From NCBI GenBank assembly GCA_013375475.1, contig JABXKD010000066.1:1-21960 (forward strand): a stretch of DNA of 21,960 nucleotides, written 5' to 3'. Every line of letters starts with the position of its first letter. The stretch's first letter is position 1. Both the position numbers and the translations under genes were made by a program. The notes under the pieces were generated by a model. The model did not search any database and was not told the DNA's origin. It saw only the letters and a list, made by a program, of their open reading frames with translations. The DNA comes from Promethearchaeota archaeon (GTDB lineage: Archaea; Asgardarchaeota; Lokiarchaeia; Sigyniarchaeales; SOKP01). Positions 2 through 19,712 of this stretch are shown here, in pieces.

Positions 2-706
2 GAGCTAGTGTTAATCATAATATGTTTTCGATCTGATGGGACGATTAATTTTTCTGATTTGAAAGCAATTAGATTGGAGTTGAATAACGCAGGAATTCGG
101 TTAAATACAAGCCCCCCTAGGATTGTAATTAAAGAACGTACGCGTGGAGGAATTCATTTTACTTATAAAGGACACCAACTCATGGATGCGGAAGAAGTAA
201 AAGCTCTAATGAATGAACTTAAAGTTCGGAACGCAGGAGTTTATTTTTCTGAACCTGATATTACACCGGATGAGTTAATAGATTTTGTATTTGGAAATCG
301 TATCTACACAAGAGAATTTGTGGTCATTAACAAATCTGATTTGATGGAAACTCCGATTCCTCCCGAAAAAATCACGGATGCTATTGGTCATGAACATTGG
401 GTTATGATCTCAGCTAAAAATAAAGAAAATATTAATACTCTTAAGCATAATATCTTCACGGAATTGAATTTAATACGGGTGTTTTTAAAACCGCCACGAC
501 AAGAAGCGGATATGGATGAACCTATAATTCTCCACGAAGGCGATACCCTCGAGAATCTCTGTCGTAAAATTCACAAACGATTTATAAGCGATTATCGCTA
601 CTCTTTAGTATGGGGTAAATCAGCTAAACACCCAGGCCAAAAATTCGAAAACCTAGATCACATAATTGAAGATGGAGACATCATTTCGATTTATTTGAAG
701 CGATAA
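2..706 (+). CDS. drg: DRG/OBG-family GTP-binding protein, C-terminal part with TGS domain (5'-truncated by window)
   Basis: Frame is open to the window edge (ELVLIII...). It contains the DRG signature 'GIRLN..PP.I.IK....GGI', G4 NKSD, G5 ISAK, and a TGS domain 'LIRVFLKP...LCRKIHK...VWGKSAKHPGQK...DHIIEDGDIISI'. Confidence 0.93.
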   Translation, partial: ELVLIIICFRSDGTINFSDLKAIRLELNNAGIRLNTSPPRIVIKERTRGGIHFTYKGHQLMDAEEVKALMNELKVRNAGVYFSEPDITPDELIDFVFGNRIYTREFVVINKSDLMETPIPPEKITDAIGHEHWVMISAKNKENINTLKHNIFTELNLIRVFLKPPRQEADMDEPIILHEGDTLENLCRKIHKRFISDYRYSLVWGKSAKHPGQKFENLDHIIEDGDIISIYLKR

Positions 707-741: not shown

Positions 742-1374
742 TTAGGGATAAAAAATCTTATATAGCTCCCGATATATTGCTGCTAACGCGGAAATTCTAT
801 ATGGATCGTTTTCTTGTAACGCATAGTTGAGATAATAAGGTAATCCTTGAGGATCTTTGATCCAGCCTAGCATACTGTCTATTTCTGCCTTTAAATATGG
901 ATCGATTGAGGGTTGTGCCATCCTACTGCTTTTTTGAGCGAGTTCATTTTCATCAGAATCTTCTACATCAGTCTCGATAAATTGCGATGCTGAACCTTTT
1001 CTCATCATTGCTGCTGCTCTTGCTATAGCTGGGTAAGCCATATGCTCCCAACCTTTTGCTTTTGGTTTAATGTGAGCGATAAGATACATATCTGTGTCAG
1101 GTATAGAGGACCCAACCAAGTGTCCCTTTTTTTGTCTGTTAGTTGCTATAAATCTCTCTGGTTGCATTTGAAGAACTGAATATCTTATACCATTCATATT
1201 CACAAATTGAGCGCTACCACTACTCCAACTAGCAAATAGTCCTTTAACATCTTTCGTTACATTCCATTTACCTGTGGAGTGGAGAACTTTTCCTTTATTA
1301 TTTATCACAACTACTTCCGTAGCGTCTGAGTAATGTTTTTGTAAGTGTTTTACGATTGATTTATAATTTACTAT
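742..1374 (-). CDS. Asgard profilin-like protein with acidic linker and C-terminal helical extension
   Basis: 'VVVINNKGKVLHSTGKWNV...VNMNGIRYSVLQMQPERFIATNRQKKGHLVG' follows the pattern I recall for Loki profilins (AII..nG.l...t.nW.i ... iqGiKY.i.....ER.IgTN..gKGHi). The frame is open upstream of the tracked GTG (1308), giving VNYKSIVKHLQKHYSDATE, the missing N-terminal helix. Start placed at ATA 1374 behind a GGTG motif; this start is inferred. Confidence 0.75.
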   Translation of the reverse strand: MVNYKSIVKHLQKHYSDATEVVVINNKGKVLHSTGKWNVTKDVKGLFASWSSGSAQFVNMNGIRYSVLQMQPERFIATNRQKKGHLVGSSIPDTDMYLIAHIKPKAKGWEHMAYPAIARAAAMMRKGSASQFIETDVEDSDENELAQKSSRMAQPSIDPYLKAEIDSMLGWIKDPQGLPYYLNYALQENDPYRISALAAIYRELYKIFYP

Positions 1375-1387
1375 GATAATACACCAT

Positions 1388-2809
1388 TTAAGACGGTTGC
1401 TTTTTATTCATTAAATTAATCCATCCTTCGATTTGTTCTAACAATTCAGATTTCTCTTTTGAGCTTAGTCCCAAATTTGGGTCTACTCGCTGGTAGAGAT
1501 TAACAATTCTACTCATTTCCCATAAAATATTTGAATGTAAAATCATAGTTTTTATATAATCTCTACCAATTTCTAATGCCCTTGCGATGGATCTAATATC
1601 ATAATCTCGATATACAATTTCTCTAATTACAAGGAGTATATCTAGCGAATTACTCGTTGGAATAATTGGAAGCGGTTTAGGTCTTACAGTAGGTCGTTTC
1701 ATAGTTCTTATCTTGAATTCCTTTTGTTCCTCCCTAAAAATTGTAGCTTTGGTAGTTTGTTCATCAACATCTTGTGGTTGGTATAATTTAGAGGCTTCTT
1801 GAACAACTGATCTCTCCAACTCATCCTTAGTTTTTCTCTTAAATATTTCAAGCCATTCGACAAAAGAATGCATTCTAGGTTCGGCAGAAAGAAATACTGA
1901 ATTTTTCTCCAGTTTTTCTTTTGATCTCTCAATGTTCTGAGCAGTAGAAGAGCCTATTTCTGATTTTAAACTCATAGAAGCATTTACTAGAATTGAAAAT
2001 AAGTACATGGGATCGTAATCTATTTTAGAATATACCTTTCTGAGATTTAATACTAATTCTTCAATCCGCTTTAAATTCTTGAGTGAATAAAATTGCTCTA
2101 AATGCGTTTTAGAGTCGAAATTTATTCCGTTTAATCCTGCTGTTGGACTTAGGTAATTTGTTTTCATCTCAGAGTCCATTTTGGAAGAAATTAAGATCTG
2201 ATTATAAGAATCCCATTCTGTACTCAGGAGGATTTGTCCTATTTTGTCTACTTGAAAAGAACGCGGATTTTTCAAAGTTTCCATAAACTCTAAGATGATA
2301 TCCTTGTAAGGAATGAACAGATTTCTCATTAGAGTTCCTTGAATAAACGTACGTTTGTTTTCAGATTTAAACGATAAATCTATGGGTAGTTTGAAAAGAT
2401 TCTCACTTACGATTACATCGCGATCGTTTTCTAAAGTTATATTTTTAGATGCCGCAAGATAATCGTAAACGAAATCGGAAAGCACTAAACCCGTTAATTG
2501 TCGATTATCAGTGATGTATCTTCCGCTTTGAAGCTCAAATTTAGTATAATAATAGCCTATCCCAAAAAGGTAATAAAGAGTCCCCATTTCTGTCTGAACA
2601 GAACAATCAGCTCCACCAAAGAAAATAACAAAGTCTTGGGATATTTTTGACACGTTATGGTTAGAATACTTACCCAATGTAGGATAACCGAGAAGATGAC
2701 CCCAACTAGGTATTACAAAAAATGAATAATTTTCCAAGATATTAGGCTTCGCTCCCATGAAGGCTATACCAAATGTGTTTACTAACTTTTTTTGCGATCT
2801 ATTCTGGAT
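1388..2809 (-). CDS. Hypothetical protein (456 aa from ATG 2758; possibly 473 aa from ATC 2809), soluble, no recognised domain
   Basis: Long ORF. The N-terminal part is aromatic/Gly-rich (FFVIPSWGHLLGYP, LYYLFGIGYYYTKF), followed by a charged/Pro linker (RPTVRPKPLPIIP) and a helical C-terminus. The frame stays open 18 codons upstream of ATG 2758. Confidence 0.85.
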   Translation of the reverse strand: MQNRSQKKLVNTFGIAFMGAKPNILENYSFFVIPSWGHLLGYPTLGKYSNHNVSKISQDFVIFFGGADCSVQTEMGTLYYLFGIGYYYTKFELQSGRYITDNRQLTGLVLSDFVYDYLAASKNITLENDRDVIVSENLFKLPIDLSFKSENKRTFIQGTLMRNLFIPYKDIILEFMETLKNPRSFQVDKIGQILLSTEWDSYNQILISSKMDSEMKTNYLSPTAGLNGINFDSKTHLEQFYSLKNLKRIEELVLNLRKVYSKIDYDPMYLFSILVNASMSLKSEIGSSTAQNIERSKEKLEKNSVFLSAEPRMHSFVEWLEIFKRKTKDELERSVVQEASKLYQPQDVDEQTTKATIFREEQKEFKIRTMKRPTVRPKPLPIIPTSNSLDILLVIREIVYRDYDIRSIARALEIGRDYIKTMILHSNILWEMSRIVNLYQRVDPNLGLSSKEKSELLEQIEGWINLMNKKQPS

Positions 2810-11166: not shown

Positions 11167-13860
11167 TTAAAATTTATTTATTATTATTTGCCAAGATAGG
11201 GGTTTATTAAGCTTACTCTCTCCAGTTAATATAACGCGATTTCCCATAATAGCGAACTCATTTTTGTTTCCATTTGTATTTATAGAACTAATTTTCTCAA
11301 GTTCTTGATTAGTTAGTTCTATTGATAATTTCCATGTACCTTCTTTTTTAGGACTATACCACCCTGAATATCCATTTACCGTTTTTTCTATTCCAATAAG
11401 AGAAGATTTAAACCTATATTCCTCTTCAGGGAGAGTGGGTTTTAATTCTACCCCTTCAGAAGTGAAATTTATTCCCATTAAGCGAGTTAGATCGTATAAG
11501 GGCCATGCATGAGGATGTAAGTTGAATACAGGAAAATCGGTCCAAGCGATTCCTATATGAGCAAGATGTTCTTCTCCATCTGCAAGTTCTTCTTCTCCAT
11601 TAATTAATCCTTCATCAAATACGGTCTGCCCGGGATATTTAGATAAATCCGAATTATATGTATCAGGGCCACTCCAAATACCGTACCAAACCTCCGGAAA
11701 ATTCTCAGCATGGTAAGCCAGCGTATTTTTTTTCCACTCGTCCCAGCCCAGATTCCCATCAACCAGTGAAAGTGCCCATATTAAAGTACCGTTTATGGAA
11801 GGCCATATACCAGCGTTCACACCCTGTCCTATATTCCTTATACTCTCAATTCCTTTACTATGAAGCCGTGCACCAATTTTTGAAGGTTTTCGTAATAATT
11901 CATTAATGGTCTGAACTAAAATCATCTTTTTCTTATCCTCAAGTGCGTCCCCTATAATAGCCCATGGTTGAGGTTCTAACCACATCTGGTTCTCACCTAC
12001 CCAACCTAAGTCTTCTGTTAACCAGGCTCTTCTAAACCATCTTCCCATCCACTGAGCTTTAACTGCTTCTCTTTGGGATTCAGAACATTTTAGAACTTCC
12101 TCAGCTAATTCCGATTCGTCTAGATAACATAACATCTCGGAATAGATTTTTAGAGAGAAAATAGCCATGGCTGCATTTAAAACGCTTTCCCCTTCTTTTT
12201 GGATTTCCTTATGTTTTTCAGGTGAAATGTTTCCAATTACAACTCCATCGTTCCAATCTCCATTCGATAATCTCTGGAGTCCATGACGTCCTGTTCCTGT
12301 TTTTTTAACGAGGTGACGGTAACATCTTTTCAATATTTCTGCTACTTCTACTTTTTCAACTCGAGATCCATAAACGGGATATCTTGAAATTTGCTCAGAA
12401 AGGAAATCTGTGTCTCGCGTACCAAGAATGTATTCACTTGCCAGCCACAACAACCACATTTCTTGATCGCTTGGTTTAAAAGGGGTTGGTAGGATTTGTC
12501 CGCTACCAGTGAAAGCGTAGGGTATTTCACCGCTCTTACGAACTGTTTTCAGGATATACCTAATAACATTCTTAACGATGTCAGGATCGTTGTATATAAA
12601 CGGTAACGCGTGTTGTAAAGGATCTCGAGCTGCCCCTTGAAATCCAAGGATATACTGATAGACATGACCCTGAGAGAGGATATGCTCTTTGAAAAAGCTA
12701 TCATAAGTCATAGCGCTTCGCAAGTAGTAATAATGCCAAAAAATCTCGCGATTTACCCAAGGCTCGTCGTAGATTTGTAATTGTATTCTGGTAGTTTTCC
12801 ATTGCTCACAGGATTCTTCAAACTTAGTAGATGTACCAGTTTTATATTTAATAATCAGTGCTTCCAGTTCAAAATTATCGGGAAGATATCCGTATAAAAA
12901 TGAGAGGGTGCAACTTTCAGTCGGATTTAAACTAACTTTCTGCTCAAGTAGCATGGAGCTTTCAACCCCTGTGGAGTTAAGACTATTATTAAGATCGTTT
13001 TTTAAACCATCAGGAGTTTCAACGCCATCTATCCCAAAAAAATCTTTACTGTTTGTTTGCATACCACTGATTTCCGAGTCTAAAGAGACAAGAAATGTTT
13101 TGGGAGGAAATTTGTCTCTAAAACTAGGTTGAAGGTTGTTTGGATCGTATATTTTTTCCTGGTTTTCAAAGTATCTTTTATCTAGAATTCCTGTACCATT
13201 CTCAATTGATTTAAATTCATGTTTGAGCTTATTGCTTGATTCGTGTCGCACATCTCTGGGATGTTTATCTGATGTTTTCGAAAGCATTCCTGCAAAAGCA
13301 GCGGATGAAAATTGATACATGTAGCATCCCCAATATTCGATCCATCGCAAATCTACCCGTTCTTTTCTATTATTGGTGATTTTAACTTGAGAAATTATCA
13401 CGGGATCGTCCCCGAAAGGTGCGAAAATAATCTGGTTCACTGAATATCCTTTTCCACTCACTTTTTTTTGAAAATAACCAATTCCAAAAATTCGTTCAAA
13501 GGAGTCTGCATTGCCTGAATAATATGTACTTAAAAAATTAGTTCCATCTGTTAGGTACCCAAATCCTCCCGCATATTGTCCTTGTTCGGGATTAAATTCG
13601 TTTAAATATTTCGGACTACCCTCGTCCTGTCGCACTTGGATATGTCCATAGTTCGATGCTACAGCTACCAACCTATCGTTCCCAACTTGATGAAGGTGTT
13701 CTTTGTTTGAACGCCACTTTTTATTCATTGGAGTTATTGCTTTAGGATCGTTGATTTGGTTGCATGTATAACGATATGCAGGCAATCCAAGTTCGTCTTC
13801 AACCCATTCTCCAAAATAACCGGACCCAAATTCTTTTTTACTCATTTTATTATGACTCAT
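11167..13860 (-). CDS. GH94-like (cellobiose phosphorylase superfamily) glycoside phosphorylase/hydrolase
   Basis: 897 aa with an N-terminal beta-sandwich-like region, RD..Q sugar-binding motif (AARDPLQH), catalytic GDWND, GESVLNA and EPQPWA. An alternative ATG lies at 13845. Confidence 0.85.
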   Translation of the reverse strand: MSHNKMSKKEFGSGYFGEWVEDELGLPAYRYTCNQINDPKAITPMNKKWRSNKEHLHQVGNDRLVAVASNYGHIQVRQDEGSPKYLNEFNPEQGQYAGGFGYLTDGTNFLSTYYSGNADSFERIFGIGYFQKKVSGKGYSVNQIIFAPFGDDPVIISQVKITNNRKERVDLRWIEYWGCYMYQFSSAAFAGMLSKTSDKHPRDVRHESSNKLKHEFKSIENGTGILDKRYFENQEKIYDPNNLQPSFRDKFPPKTFLVSLDSEISGMQTNSKDFFGIDGVETPDGLKNDLNNSLNSTGVESSMLLEQKVSLNPTESCTLSFLYGYLPDNFELEALIIKYKTGTSTKFEESCEQWKTTRIQLQIYDEPWVNREIFWHYYYLRSAMTYDSFFKEHILSQGHVYQYILGFQGAARDPLQHALPFIYNDPDIVKNVIRYILKTVRKSGEIPYAFTGSGQILPTPFKPSDQEMWLLWLASEYILGTRDTDFLSEQISRYPVYGSRVEKVEVAEILKRCYRHLVKKTGTGRHGLQRLSNGDWNDGVVIGNISPEKHKEIQKEGESVLNAAMAIFSLKIYSEMLCYLDESELAEEVLKCSESQREAVKAQWMGRWFRRAWLTEDLGWVGENQMWLEPQPWAIIGDALEDKKKMILVQTINELLRKPSKIGARLHSKGIESIRNIGQGVNAGIWPSINGTLIWALSLVDGNLGWDEWKKNTLAYHAENFPEVWYGIWSGPDTYNSDLSKYPGQTVFDEGLINGEEELADGEEHLAHIGIAWTDFPVFNLHPHAWPLYDLTRLMGINFTSEGVELKPTLPEEEYRFKSSLIGIEKTVNGYSGWYSPKKEGTWKLSIELTNQELEKISSINTNGNKNEFAIMGNRVILTGESKLNKPLSWQIIINKF

Positions 13861-18470: not shown

Positions 18471-19712
18471 TTATCCTGCCAATTTTCCTACTTTTCTGTG
18501 GATAAGATTCCTTATCTCCCGTATATTCTTATCCATATTGTAAAAATCAAATTCCAATCCTAACCTCGATTTAAGTAGTGTAGGAATGTGATTCACATCA
18601 TAAAAAACCGGTATGATAGGCATACCAATCGCCTCTGCCGCCGTCCACTCTTTTTTAACGGGGACTGAATTTTTCGCATTTTCCGAACAGAATAAAATCA
18701 TTGTATCACATTTCTCGAGACTTTTATCCATATATTCAAAAATATTGTCTTCCATGTGTTCTTCCCAATATAGAACATTCTCTAACTCAGGATATTCAAT
18801 AAGCTTCTTAGCAATATCATGAACTTTAAAAGTATCTACATCCTTCGTGGCATAACTCATAAAAATATACTTTTTATCCTCAAGTTCTTTATCTTTAAGA
18901 ATTTGTTCTTTAATGACTTTATCAGAGTTAGTCTTTTTCAAAACATATGACACTAATCTTAATTCTTCGTCTGAAGGTAATTTCTTTTTTTTTTTTTTTT
19001 CTCGTTTTTCTCTTATGGGTTTTACTCCATAGTATAATAACAAAACCAAACTAAAAAATCCAAACATATAGAAACCCGATAAAATTCCAGGTTTAGAAGT
19101 AGTAATAATATATGCAAAAAATACACAAAGAATAAAACTTAAAGATAATAAAAAATATTTTTTTCTAATTTTCCCTTTTAATTTCATACCTTTAATCATA
19201 ATCCCAAATCCAAAAATTAACAGTGAAAGTTCTAAATATAAAACAATAAAAAAGGCCAAAGAATAAAGATTAAAACGAATATTGGTTAGATTTTCTCCTG
19301 GGGTAGAAGGTATATCGATAAGAACTATGCTAAATGGATCATAGAATAAGATTATCTCAAAAATTAGGCACAATATTAAGTAAGTAACAAAAAAATACCG
19401 TTTTCTATTTGGTAGGTTAAGAGTTATAGCCACATAATTCAAAGCACTCAAACCAATGGGAGCCCAAAACCATTTGAAAATAATTATTGTAGCATCAAAA
19501 GATAAATTACTGCCAGTGTAAAGAATATATATAAATTCAATAGTGCCTGGCAAGAATGAAAGTGTTGCAGTAATGAGAGCAAACCCCGCATAATACAGCA
19601 ATTTTACTTGATACACTTTCGCTTTATGAAAATAGTAAAAACCGGCTATAATATCAAAAAAAACTTTAGTTGTATTAGCTATCGCAAAGAACCAGCCTTC
19701 AATCGAAAGCAT
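18471..19712 (-). CDS. 7TM membrane protein fused to a C-terminal TIR (TIR_2) domain
   Basis: Seven hydrophobic segments in residues ~6-230, a poly-Lys linker, then TIR motifs IFMSYA..D, MD..LEKCD..ILFCS.NA..S..VKKEW.AA and IIPVF. Confidence 0.9.
   Translation of the reverse strand: MLSIEGWFFAIANTTKVFFDIIAGFYYFHKAKVYQVKLLYYAGFALITATLSFLPGTIEFIYILYTGSNLSFDATIIIFKWFWAPIGLSALNYVAITLNLPNRKRYFFVTYLILCLIFEIILFYDPFSIVLIDIPSTPGENLTNIRFNLYSLAFFIVLYLELSLLIFGFGIMIKGMKLKGKIRKKYFLLSLSFILCVFFAYIITTSKPGILSGFYMFGFFSLVLLLYYGVKPIREKREKKKKKKLPSDEELRLVSYVLKKTNSDKVIKEQILKDKELEDKKYIFMSYATKDVDTFKVHDIAKKLIEYPELENVLYWEEHMEDNIFEYMDKSLEKCDTMILFCSENAKNSVPVKKEWTAAEAIGMPIIPVFYDVNHIPTLLKSRLGLEFDFYNMDKNIREIRNLIHRKVGKLAG
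18985..19000 (-). repeat. A16 homopolymer (coding strand) within 7TM-TIR linker
   Basis: 16 consecutive T on the + strand, encoding EKKKKK. It is the longest homopolymer I saw in the window. Confidence 0.9.

Follow-up and report, generated by a model that had tools for sequence, protein, structure and literature searches.

A predicted profilin with a conserved C-terminal module from one order of Asgard archaea

What would an archaeal profilin do with a second domain at its C-terminus? This question is raised by a locus of a Promethearchaeota archaeon (order Sigyniarchaeales), located near the start of contig JABXKD010000066.1 from assembly GCA_013375475.1. The whole stretch of DNA analysed, hereafter called the window, comprises 21,960 nucleotides (nt), i.e. 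positions 1 to 21,960 of this contig. At 742..1374, on the minus strand, it carries a gene encoding a 210-residue protein, referred to below as the long profilin, in which a predicted profilin domain precedes a linker and a small additional module. Studies of actin regulation in Asgard archaea have so far centred on short single-domain profilins and on gelsolins. We favour, with a probability of roughly 0.55, the reading that the long profilin is a predicted binder of actin monomers tethered to a shared docking or oligomerization module that would place profilin-actin, that its translation starts at an ATA codon and that its gene forms an operon with an upstream gene encoding a 456-residue protein.

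The N-terminal profilin domain

The frame at 742..1374 is free of stops over 210 codons, ends with a stop codon at 742-744 and aligns end to end with orthologues of 210-212 residues. Its product begins with IVNYKSIVKHLQKHYSDATEVVV (IVNYKS...) and terminates with YKIFYP. All the motifs that the initial annotation had quoted, i.e. STGKWNV, GIRY, PERFIATN...KKGH, ETDVEDSDENE and a helical block running from IDPYLKAEID to YKIF, are found in this 210-residue frame.

Residues 1-125 (1000..1374, minus strand) are a profilin domain, as judged both by homology and by predicted fold. In a phmmer comparison with the sequences of the PDB, the protein matches 5yed_A (E-value 1.3e-6), 7pbh_A (1.4e-6), 5zzb_A (3.7e-6) and 5zza_P (7.5e-6), all of which are Asgard profilins, and no other protein family appears below an E-value of 0.8. 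An AlphaFold2 model of the long profilin, built on 22 family members, reaches values of the predicted local distance difference test (pLDDT) of 82-92, in blocks of 10 residues, over residues 1-120. The predicted elements are helices at 4-14, 40-52 and 109-122 and strands at 18-25, 30-33, 57-60, 63-70, 74-78, 85-90 and 96-102. They agree with the profilin fold, in which a seven-stranded sheet has both terminal helices on the same face and three inserted strands take the place of half of the central helix. A Foldseek search of the PDB with this model gives 32 matches at E <= 1e-3; all 27 rows printed (duplicate chains being omitted) are profilins, led by LokiProfilin2, LokiProfilin1 and OdinProfilin with E-values of 6e-11 to 1.1e-10 and template-modelling (TM) scores of 0.76-0.84. 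The profilin identity that had been assigned to the N-terminal ~125 residues is thus borne out by both approaches.

The domain is therefore homologous to that of the characterised Loki profilin-1 and -2 and Odin profilin (5YED/5YEE, 5ZZB and 5ZZA), with the same predicted fold and 23-25% identity in the structural matches. The common motifs are the tryptophan region of strand 2, G-I-[RK]-Y, E-R-x-I-[AG]-T-N and K-G-H. Conversely, the window protein, which is ~24% identical to these profilins, displays short deletions after helix 2. The most conserved part of the whole long-profilin family is the stretch 57-79, which holds 11 of its invariant columns and corresponds to the three-strand, putatively actin-contacting motif of profilins, a motif presented as their actin-contacting element in PMC10933270. 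By analogy with the characterised Loki and Odin profilins, the domain most likely binds actin monomers.

The N-terminal domain might instead be a small-GTPase regulator of the roadblock/LC7/MglB type, not involved in actin regulation. Indeed, two homologues (P0078 and P0101) were named by the Joint Genome Institute (JGI) 'predicted regulator of Ras-like GTPase activity (Roadblock/LC7/MglB family)', and the sole Pfam match of the window protein is a weak one with Robl_LC7 (E-value 0.2; 11.9 bits for a cut-off of 23). Furthermore, relatives of the C-terminal module are fused to Ras-family GTPases (see below), and PMC10933270 describes an alpha-beta-alpha core common to the profilin and roadblock folds. 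However, all four PDB sequence matches with E < 1e-5 are profilins, and the model has seven predicted strands as in profilins, whereas the roadblock fold has five, together with a long central helix. In addition, what the long profilin has in common with the GTPase fusions is the module and not the profilin-like domain. A roadblock or longin fold, which had been named as the outcome contrary to a profilin assignment, did not emerge from the structural search either: the printed rows are profilins down to rank 33, and the first roadblock chain comes only at rank 34 (E-value 1.1e-3, root-mean-square deviation 7.7). The roadblock interpretation is accordingly given very little credence.

A small module confined to one order

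The initial annotation had described the extra C-terminal part as a single module of ~85 residues. Such a part is indeed present, but it actually consists of a variable linker of ~31 residues (126-156; 907..999, minus strand) and of a conserved domain of 54 residues (157-210; 745..906, minus strand). The linker, whose length varies among orthologues, is largely acidic and carries the consensus F-I-E-T-E-V-D-x-S-D, in which F132, E134, T135 and S140 show little or no variation. Its pLDDT block means of 39-53, with residues 129-141 and 152-154 below 50, suggest a flexible tether. Whereas Loki and Odin profilins are single-domain proteins of 119-136 residues, the window protein thus combines 210 residues, an acidic linker and an additional domain, and departs from the single-domain architecture of ~120-150 residues.

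The 54-residue domain, hereafter the module, is sharply conserved: in an alignment of 23 diverse sequences (A2), one of which is the second long profilin of this genome (see below), P3, E8, W15, G21, Y25, N33, I38 and L41 are invariant. Three helices are predicted in it, at residues 159-172, 177-187 and 191-208 of the long profilin, and the module is net acidic in the window protein. No real match of the module, of its free homologue described below or of the 456-residue protein is found in Pfam, NCBIfam or the sequences of the PDB. The module profile retrieves from the PDB sequences only one spurious match, with a C-type lectin, which was discarded as a repeated coincidence over 13 residues, and matches at E >= 0.27. 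Two Atlas look-ups revealed no relative either: one had no usable match and the other scored <= 0.79, which is chance level.

The long profilin belongs to a conserved family and is not a one-off. It matches 350 database proteins at E <= 1e-3, and the best 120 of these 350, all with E <= 3.6e-83, usually have 210-212 residues; the named entries among them are called 'hypothetical protein', apart from the two JGI entries mentioned above. Copies were located in 63 genomes, each representing a species and almost all of them bearing the label Promethearchaeota or a similar one, and 57 of these 63 copies match the query over residues 1-203 or further. In addition to the window protein, the genome from which the window originates encodes another long profilin, a single short profilin and a single free homologue of the module. 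The second long profilin (205 residues; L065:1492-2109, minus strand, on contig C234 of this genome) carries the same module and is 33% identical to the window protein over its full length (E-value 1e-38). It is flanked by a gene for a C2H2 zinc-finger protein and lacks any 456-residue neighbour; a nearby gene is presumably TFIIB-like, a label taken from the reading of its translation only. The short profilin is 25% identical to the window protein (E-value 1e-8).

Genome searches also reveal a free open frame of 53-55 codons homologous to the module. In the window's own genome, this mini-protein has 55 residues and is encoded on contig C133 at 12266-12430 (= L121:1498-1665, minus strand), between a gene resembling those of DEAD-box helicases and a gene encoding a DnaJ-type CXXCXGXG zinc domain. 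The relationship between module and mini-protein is supported by hhalign with a probability of 97.2 and an E-value of 3e-11.

The distribution of both was examined in a sample of 400 genomes of the phylum, 153 of which belong to the order of the window's genome. The module, present in one to four copies per genome, is found in 150 of these 153 genomes, including complete single-contig ones (132/134, 1/1, 13/14 and 4/4 in the families f1, f2, f3 and f4, respectively). Outside the order, it was retrieved from none of 246 genomes, whether in the other families of the class (0/7) or beyond (0/239). The mini-protein is detected in 139 of the 153 genomes, almost always as a single copy, a few of the matches in f3 being cross-hits to long profilins, and likewise in none of the 246 genomes outside the order. 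The module is thus confined to one Asgard order, and its phyletic range matches that of its free homologue. The long-profilin family, although encoded by almost all genomes of the order, is listed in public records as 'hypothetical' or in truncated form. In three genomes of one genus (G172, G176 and G181), the match to the mini-protein is stretched to 189 nt and includes one or two in-frame TAA codons, which might result from an insertion or from decay.

A profile restricted to the module, i.e. the search by C-terminal part alone that the initial annotation had suggested, was scored against 1.84 billion cluster representatives. It retrieves 54 representatives at E <= 1e-3 (E <= 1e-10 for 46), which display various architectures. 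In addition to long profilins and their fragments, there are profilins whose long linkers are rich in lysine or proline (P0149, P0163, P0168 and P0139) and proteins that join a Ras-family GTPase to the module (P0135, P0145, P0150 and P0152). P0169 consists of leucine-rich repeats with the module at its end. In P0138 (315 residues), which also has a zinc ribbon, the module precedes a polyproline tract located directly before the profilin domain. P0152 (429 residues) harbours successively a Ras-family GTPase, the module, a gelsolin repeat (20.7 bits for a cut-off of 21) and the start of a profilin. The last two proteins, P0138 and P0152, point to domain shuffling among the actin regulators of this order. 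When the module was searched among longer proteins, 771 were found, and the best 120 of them are all long profilins or fragments thereof, with no rare architecture.

The modules of the GTPase fusions are of the type of the second long profilin and are accompanied by remnants of the last helix of its profilin domain; therefore, these fusions probably derive from a long profilin. As far as can be judged from sequence, the module is an autonomous and portable domain, and the initial proposal of a fused extra domain of the oligomerization or partner-binding type finds support here: the module is separate, conserved, and occurs both as a free protein of 53-55 residues and in other architectures. 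Since the module is portable and free-standing, it fits a role in partner binding or oligomerization.

Two other roles have to be weighed at this point. The module could be a second actin-binding element, directed to the filament side or to a second monomer, which would make the long profilin a bundler, a nucleator or a filament-tethered loader. It does accompany actin-binding domains, namely those of the two profilin paralogues and the near-threshold gelsolin repeat of P0152, and headpiece-type domains on gelsolin-family proteins offer an analogy. A precedent was also found in PMC7444086, where a C-terminal extension binding the side of F-actin is hypothesised for 1DGelX. However, no match to an actin-binding family was found in Pfam or in PDB sequences; in particular, a Pfam scan of the 23 module sequences at E <= 10 gave no villin headpiece, WH2 or other actin-binding family, and no RIIa/Dpy-30 domain. 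Moreover, the module also exists as a free protein, on Ras-family GTPases and on a leucine-rich-repeat protein, and it is net acidic in the window protein. A second actin site is thus an unlikely role.

The module could also pack against the profilin domain of the same protein, e.g. against the face where the N- and C-terminal helices lie, and act as an autoinhibitory lid released by a signal. The long flexible linker would permit such an intramolecular reach, and, according to PMC8410842, the ligand binding of Heimdall and Thor profilins is modulated by their N-terminal extensions. However, the module exists without any profilin domain, being free or associated with GTPases or leucine-rich repeats, and its conservation across architectures exceeds the level that would suffice for a lid evolving in concert with one domain. 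We consider this possibility somewhat less likely still than a second actin site.

Start codon, upstream gene and neighbourhood

Taken as a gene, the interval 742-1374 proved to be coding over its whole open frame, but its first codon, at 1374-1372 on the minus strand, is ATA and not a canonical start. The first in-frame ATG, GTG or TTG is a GTG at 1308-1306, which is the start chosen by automated gene calling (1306..1308, minus strand); the resulting frame (742..1308) encodes a product of 188 residues devoid of the N-terminal helix. Indeed, the database entry for the same contig (P0002) has 188 residues and begins with MINNKGKV, and the same shortening, to 187-190 residues, is observed in 18 of the best 120 of the 350 homologues. 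The loss of the first helix that had been predicted for automated calls is thus real and recurrent.

Most orthologues have an ATG aligned with the ATA of the window (1372..1374, minus strand). An ATA or ATC replaces it in the window and in six other loci (L001, L002, L004, L007, L008 and L022), and none of these seven has an upstream in-frame ATG, GTG or TTG. A Shine-Dalgarno-like GGTG is located 7 nt 5' of the ATA in the window (1382..1385, minus strand) and at the same distance in the six other loci lacking a canonical start, with GAGGG in L022. The codons 2-22, which the automated call cuts off, display between the window and L002 eight synonymous and no non-synonymous differences; the corresponding figures are six and zero with L004 and again six and zero with L007. 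The N-terminal helix is therefore coding.

Two artefacts were considered at this site. The long profilin could be fused to the upstream gene by a +1 frameshift at the stop of the latter, which would also account for the absence of a start codon; this was rejected in view of L007 and L022, where an in-frame stop lies three to six codons upstream of the ATA or ATC site, i.e. between the stop of the 456-codon gene and this site. An assembly error was rejected because the start site is identical, without any difference, in contigs from three DNA runs belonging to two studies. Given the lack of a canonical start, the spacing of GGTG, the lack of non-synonymous changes in codons 2-22 and the identity of the start site in three DNA runs, translation most likely initiates at a near-cognate codon, the ATA at 1374. 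Since the true start is not ATG, GTG or TTG, automated calls begin 22 codons late and drop the first helix. This recurrent ATA or ATC start is a practical warning that standard gene callers strip the first helix across a whole clade.

The gene located upstream (1388..2758, minus strand) encodes a protein of 456 residues of unknown family, and its stop codon lies 13 nt before the ATA of the long profilin. In 41 of the 63 loci, a homologue of this gene immediately precedes the long-profilin gene on the same strand, over profilin identities of 45-82%. The two genes are thus adjacent in an operon-like manner and are probably co-transcribed. The AlphaFold2 model of the 456-residue protein (mean pLDDT 72.6) is rich in beta structure in its N-terminal part and disordered at 273-353; there follow a K-P-L-P-x-I-P motif with invariant K361, P364 and P367, and a C-terminal four-helix bundle at residues 371-453 (pLDDT block means mostly 77-91).

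The product of this gene might be the specific partner of the module; either the latter or the profilin domain would then dock on the proline-rich motif or the C-terminal bundle of this product. The adjacency on the same strand in 41 loci over a wide range of profilin identities and the conserved motif followed by a confidently modelled bundle are in favour of such a pairing. However, the gene is missing nearby in 22 of the 63 loci, and in four of the five genomes checked that lack an adjacent copy, its homologues are located elsewhere, none of them beside a profilin or a module (four of these displaced homologues have 640-717 residues and one has 483). Furthermore, other genes surround those of the second long profilin, the mini-protein and the GTPase fusions, and relatives of the 456-residue protein are encountered in Asgard families devoid of the module. 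As it is absent from 22 of 63 loci and as its family reaches Asgard classes without the module, this protein cannot be the only partner of the module. That it is the specific one is doubtful, although slightly less so than either the second actin site or the autoinhibitory lid. Co-folding of the 456-residue protein with the long profilin gave scores of 0.08 and 0.00, for a mark of 0.32, and is uninformative either way.

Several likenesses of the 456-residue protein were also considered. A Foldseek search with its model gives no match at E <= 1e-3. A resemblance of its bundle to the C-terminal domain of Vps28 was set aside: 2j9w_A appears only at rank 35 (E-value 0.56, TM score 0.70 over 86 columns), and no claim is made from it because four-helix bundles are common. 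The C-terminal stretch looks similar to the module, but the two are not related according to profile comparison (probability 0.3, E-value 0.22). In eight genomes of one genus (G237, G242, G244, G261, G264, G268, G270 and G271), the match to the orthologue, otherwise of full length, is interrupted in frame by one or two stop codons (TAG in G237, TAA in the others), which may indicate a split gene, a pseudogene or recoding. One metatranscriptome contig of 243 nt matches exactly the 5' part of the gene (2453-2695).

On its other side, the long-profilin gene is convergent with the 3' part of a gene encoding a GTPase of the DRG/Obg type (2-706, plus strand; MMR_HSR1_Xtn and TGS domains), which is a neighbour in 17 of the 63 loci, all of them from close relatives. 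Elsewhere the window is metabolic, with the exception of a gene at 18471-19712 (minus strand) whose product of 413 residues carries a C-terminal TIR domain (PF13676, E-value 2.5e-11).

Placement of profilin-actin and known systems

In the reading that we favour, the Loki-type profilin domain would bind actin monomers, the acidic linker of ~30 residues would act as a flexible tether, and the 54-residue module would be an autonomous domain for protein-protein docking or oligomerization. The module would tether or cluster profilin-actin at sites set by a shared partner or by association between modules. We infer that, once attached, it would supply the recruitment route that eukaryotic profilins get from polyproline binding; according to PMC8410842, Loki profilins 1 and 2 do not bind polyproline. 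The protein would be translated from the ATA codon behind a GGTG ribosome-binding motif, and its gene would be co-transcribed with the upstream 456-codon gene.

Several observations weigh against this reading. The module is modelled at low confidence (pLDDT block means of 57-63), which makes its predicted three-helix fold tentative. The fused architectures correspond to single cluster representatives derived from metagenomes and known from protein records alone; because remnants of the last profilin helix are present in the GTPase fusions, some of the latter may be decayed genes or merged gene calls. The window protein gives no match to the Pfam Profilin model (PF00235) at E <= 1, its sole Pfam match being the weak Robl_LC7 one. 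This model is, however, weak for the profilins of this genome in general, since the second long profilin (19.4 bits, E-value 1.2e-3) and the short profilin (17.9 bits, E-value 3.5e-3) also remain below the cut-off of 25. As regards the operon, the 22 loci in which the 456-codon gene is missing nearby have unrelated neighbours, and weaker relatives of its product occur in Asgard families and classes lacking the module. Finally, no transcript contig covers the profilin gene in the single RNA-library run available, a result that says nothing about expression because these are contig data.

Other Asgard actin regulators carry appendages. The Heimdall LC3 and Thor profilins (6YRR and 7PBH), whose cores are matched by the long profilin at Foldseek ranks 6 and 11, have an appendage that is N-terminal, disordered, ~20 residues long and probably of independent origins according to the authors (PMC8410842), who find an N-terminal extension on about 5% of the profilins of Asgard archaea. 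In contrast, the window protein has its appendage at the C-terminus; this appendage is highly conserved, is modelled as helical with low confidence and is also encountered apart from profilin. The same logic as in the long profilin, i.e. a small Asgard actin-binding domain to which a linker joins a further C-terminal domain (X) of unknown function, is found in Thor 1DGelX and Lokiarchaeal GelX, as described in PMC7444086. However, the actin-binding domain of 1DGelX and GelX is a gelsolin and not a profilin, and the module and the X domain are likened by description only; as the module profile retrieves none of the 246 genomes outside the order, any relation between the two would be too distant for HMMER.

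As a short terminal unit, predicted to be helical, that is associated with many partner domains and also occurs free-standing, the module behaves as a docking or dimerization domain would be expected to, and resembles in this respect the eukaryotic domains of the RIIa/Dpy-30 type. The latter serve here as an analogy only, as neither Pfam (E <= 10) nor the PDB profile search gives sequence support for such a domain in the module.

A cultured Lokiarchaeon has three profilins, according to PMC9834061 and PMC13716822. The full-text passages retrieved from the literature, whose coverage of the profilins of this cultured strain is partial, do not describe any Asgard profilin with an additional domain at its C-terminus, and no paper on 'Loki profilin-3' was found. 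The novelty of the C-terminally extended profilin is thus provisional.

A broader proposal, advanced tentatively, is that the module constitutes an order-specific docking system, homotypic or heterotypic, through which the mini-protein, the Ras-family GTPases that bear the module and the long profilins would associate, and by which GTPase signalling would be wired directly to the delivery of profilin-actin. If true, this system would be an independent Lokiarchaeal counterpart of the recruitment of profilin by polyproline and FH1 and of the docking domains of eukaryotes. Together with its free homologue, the module forms a new family of small domains that lends itself to structural analysis. 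Should it indeed serve in docking, the module would provide a concrete mechanism for placing profilin-actin without polyproline binding and would also link profilin to small GTPases.

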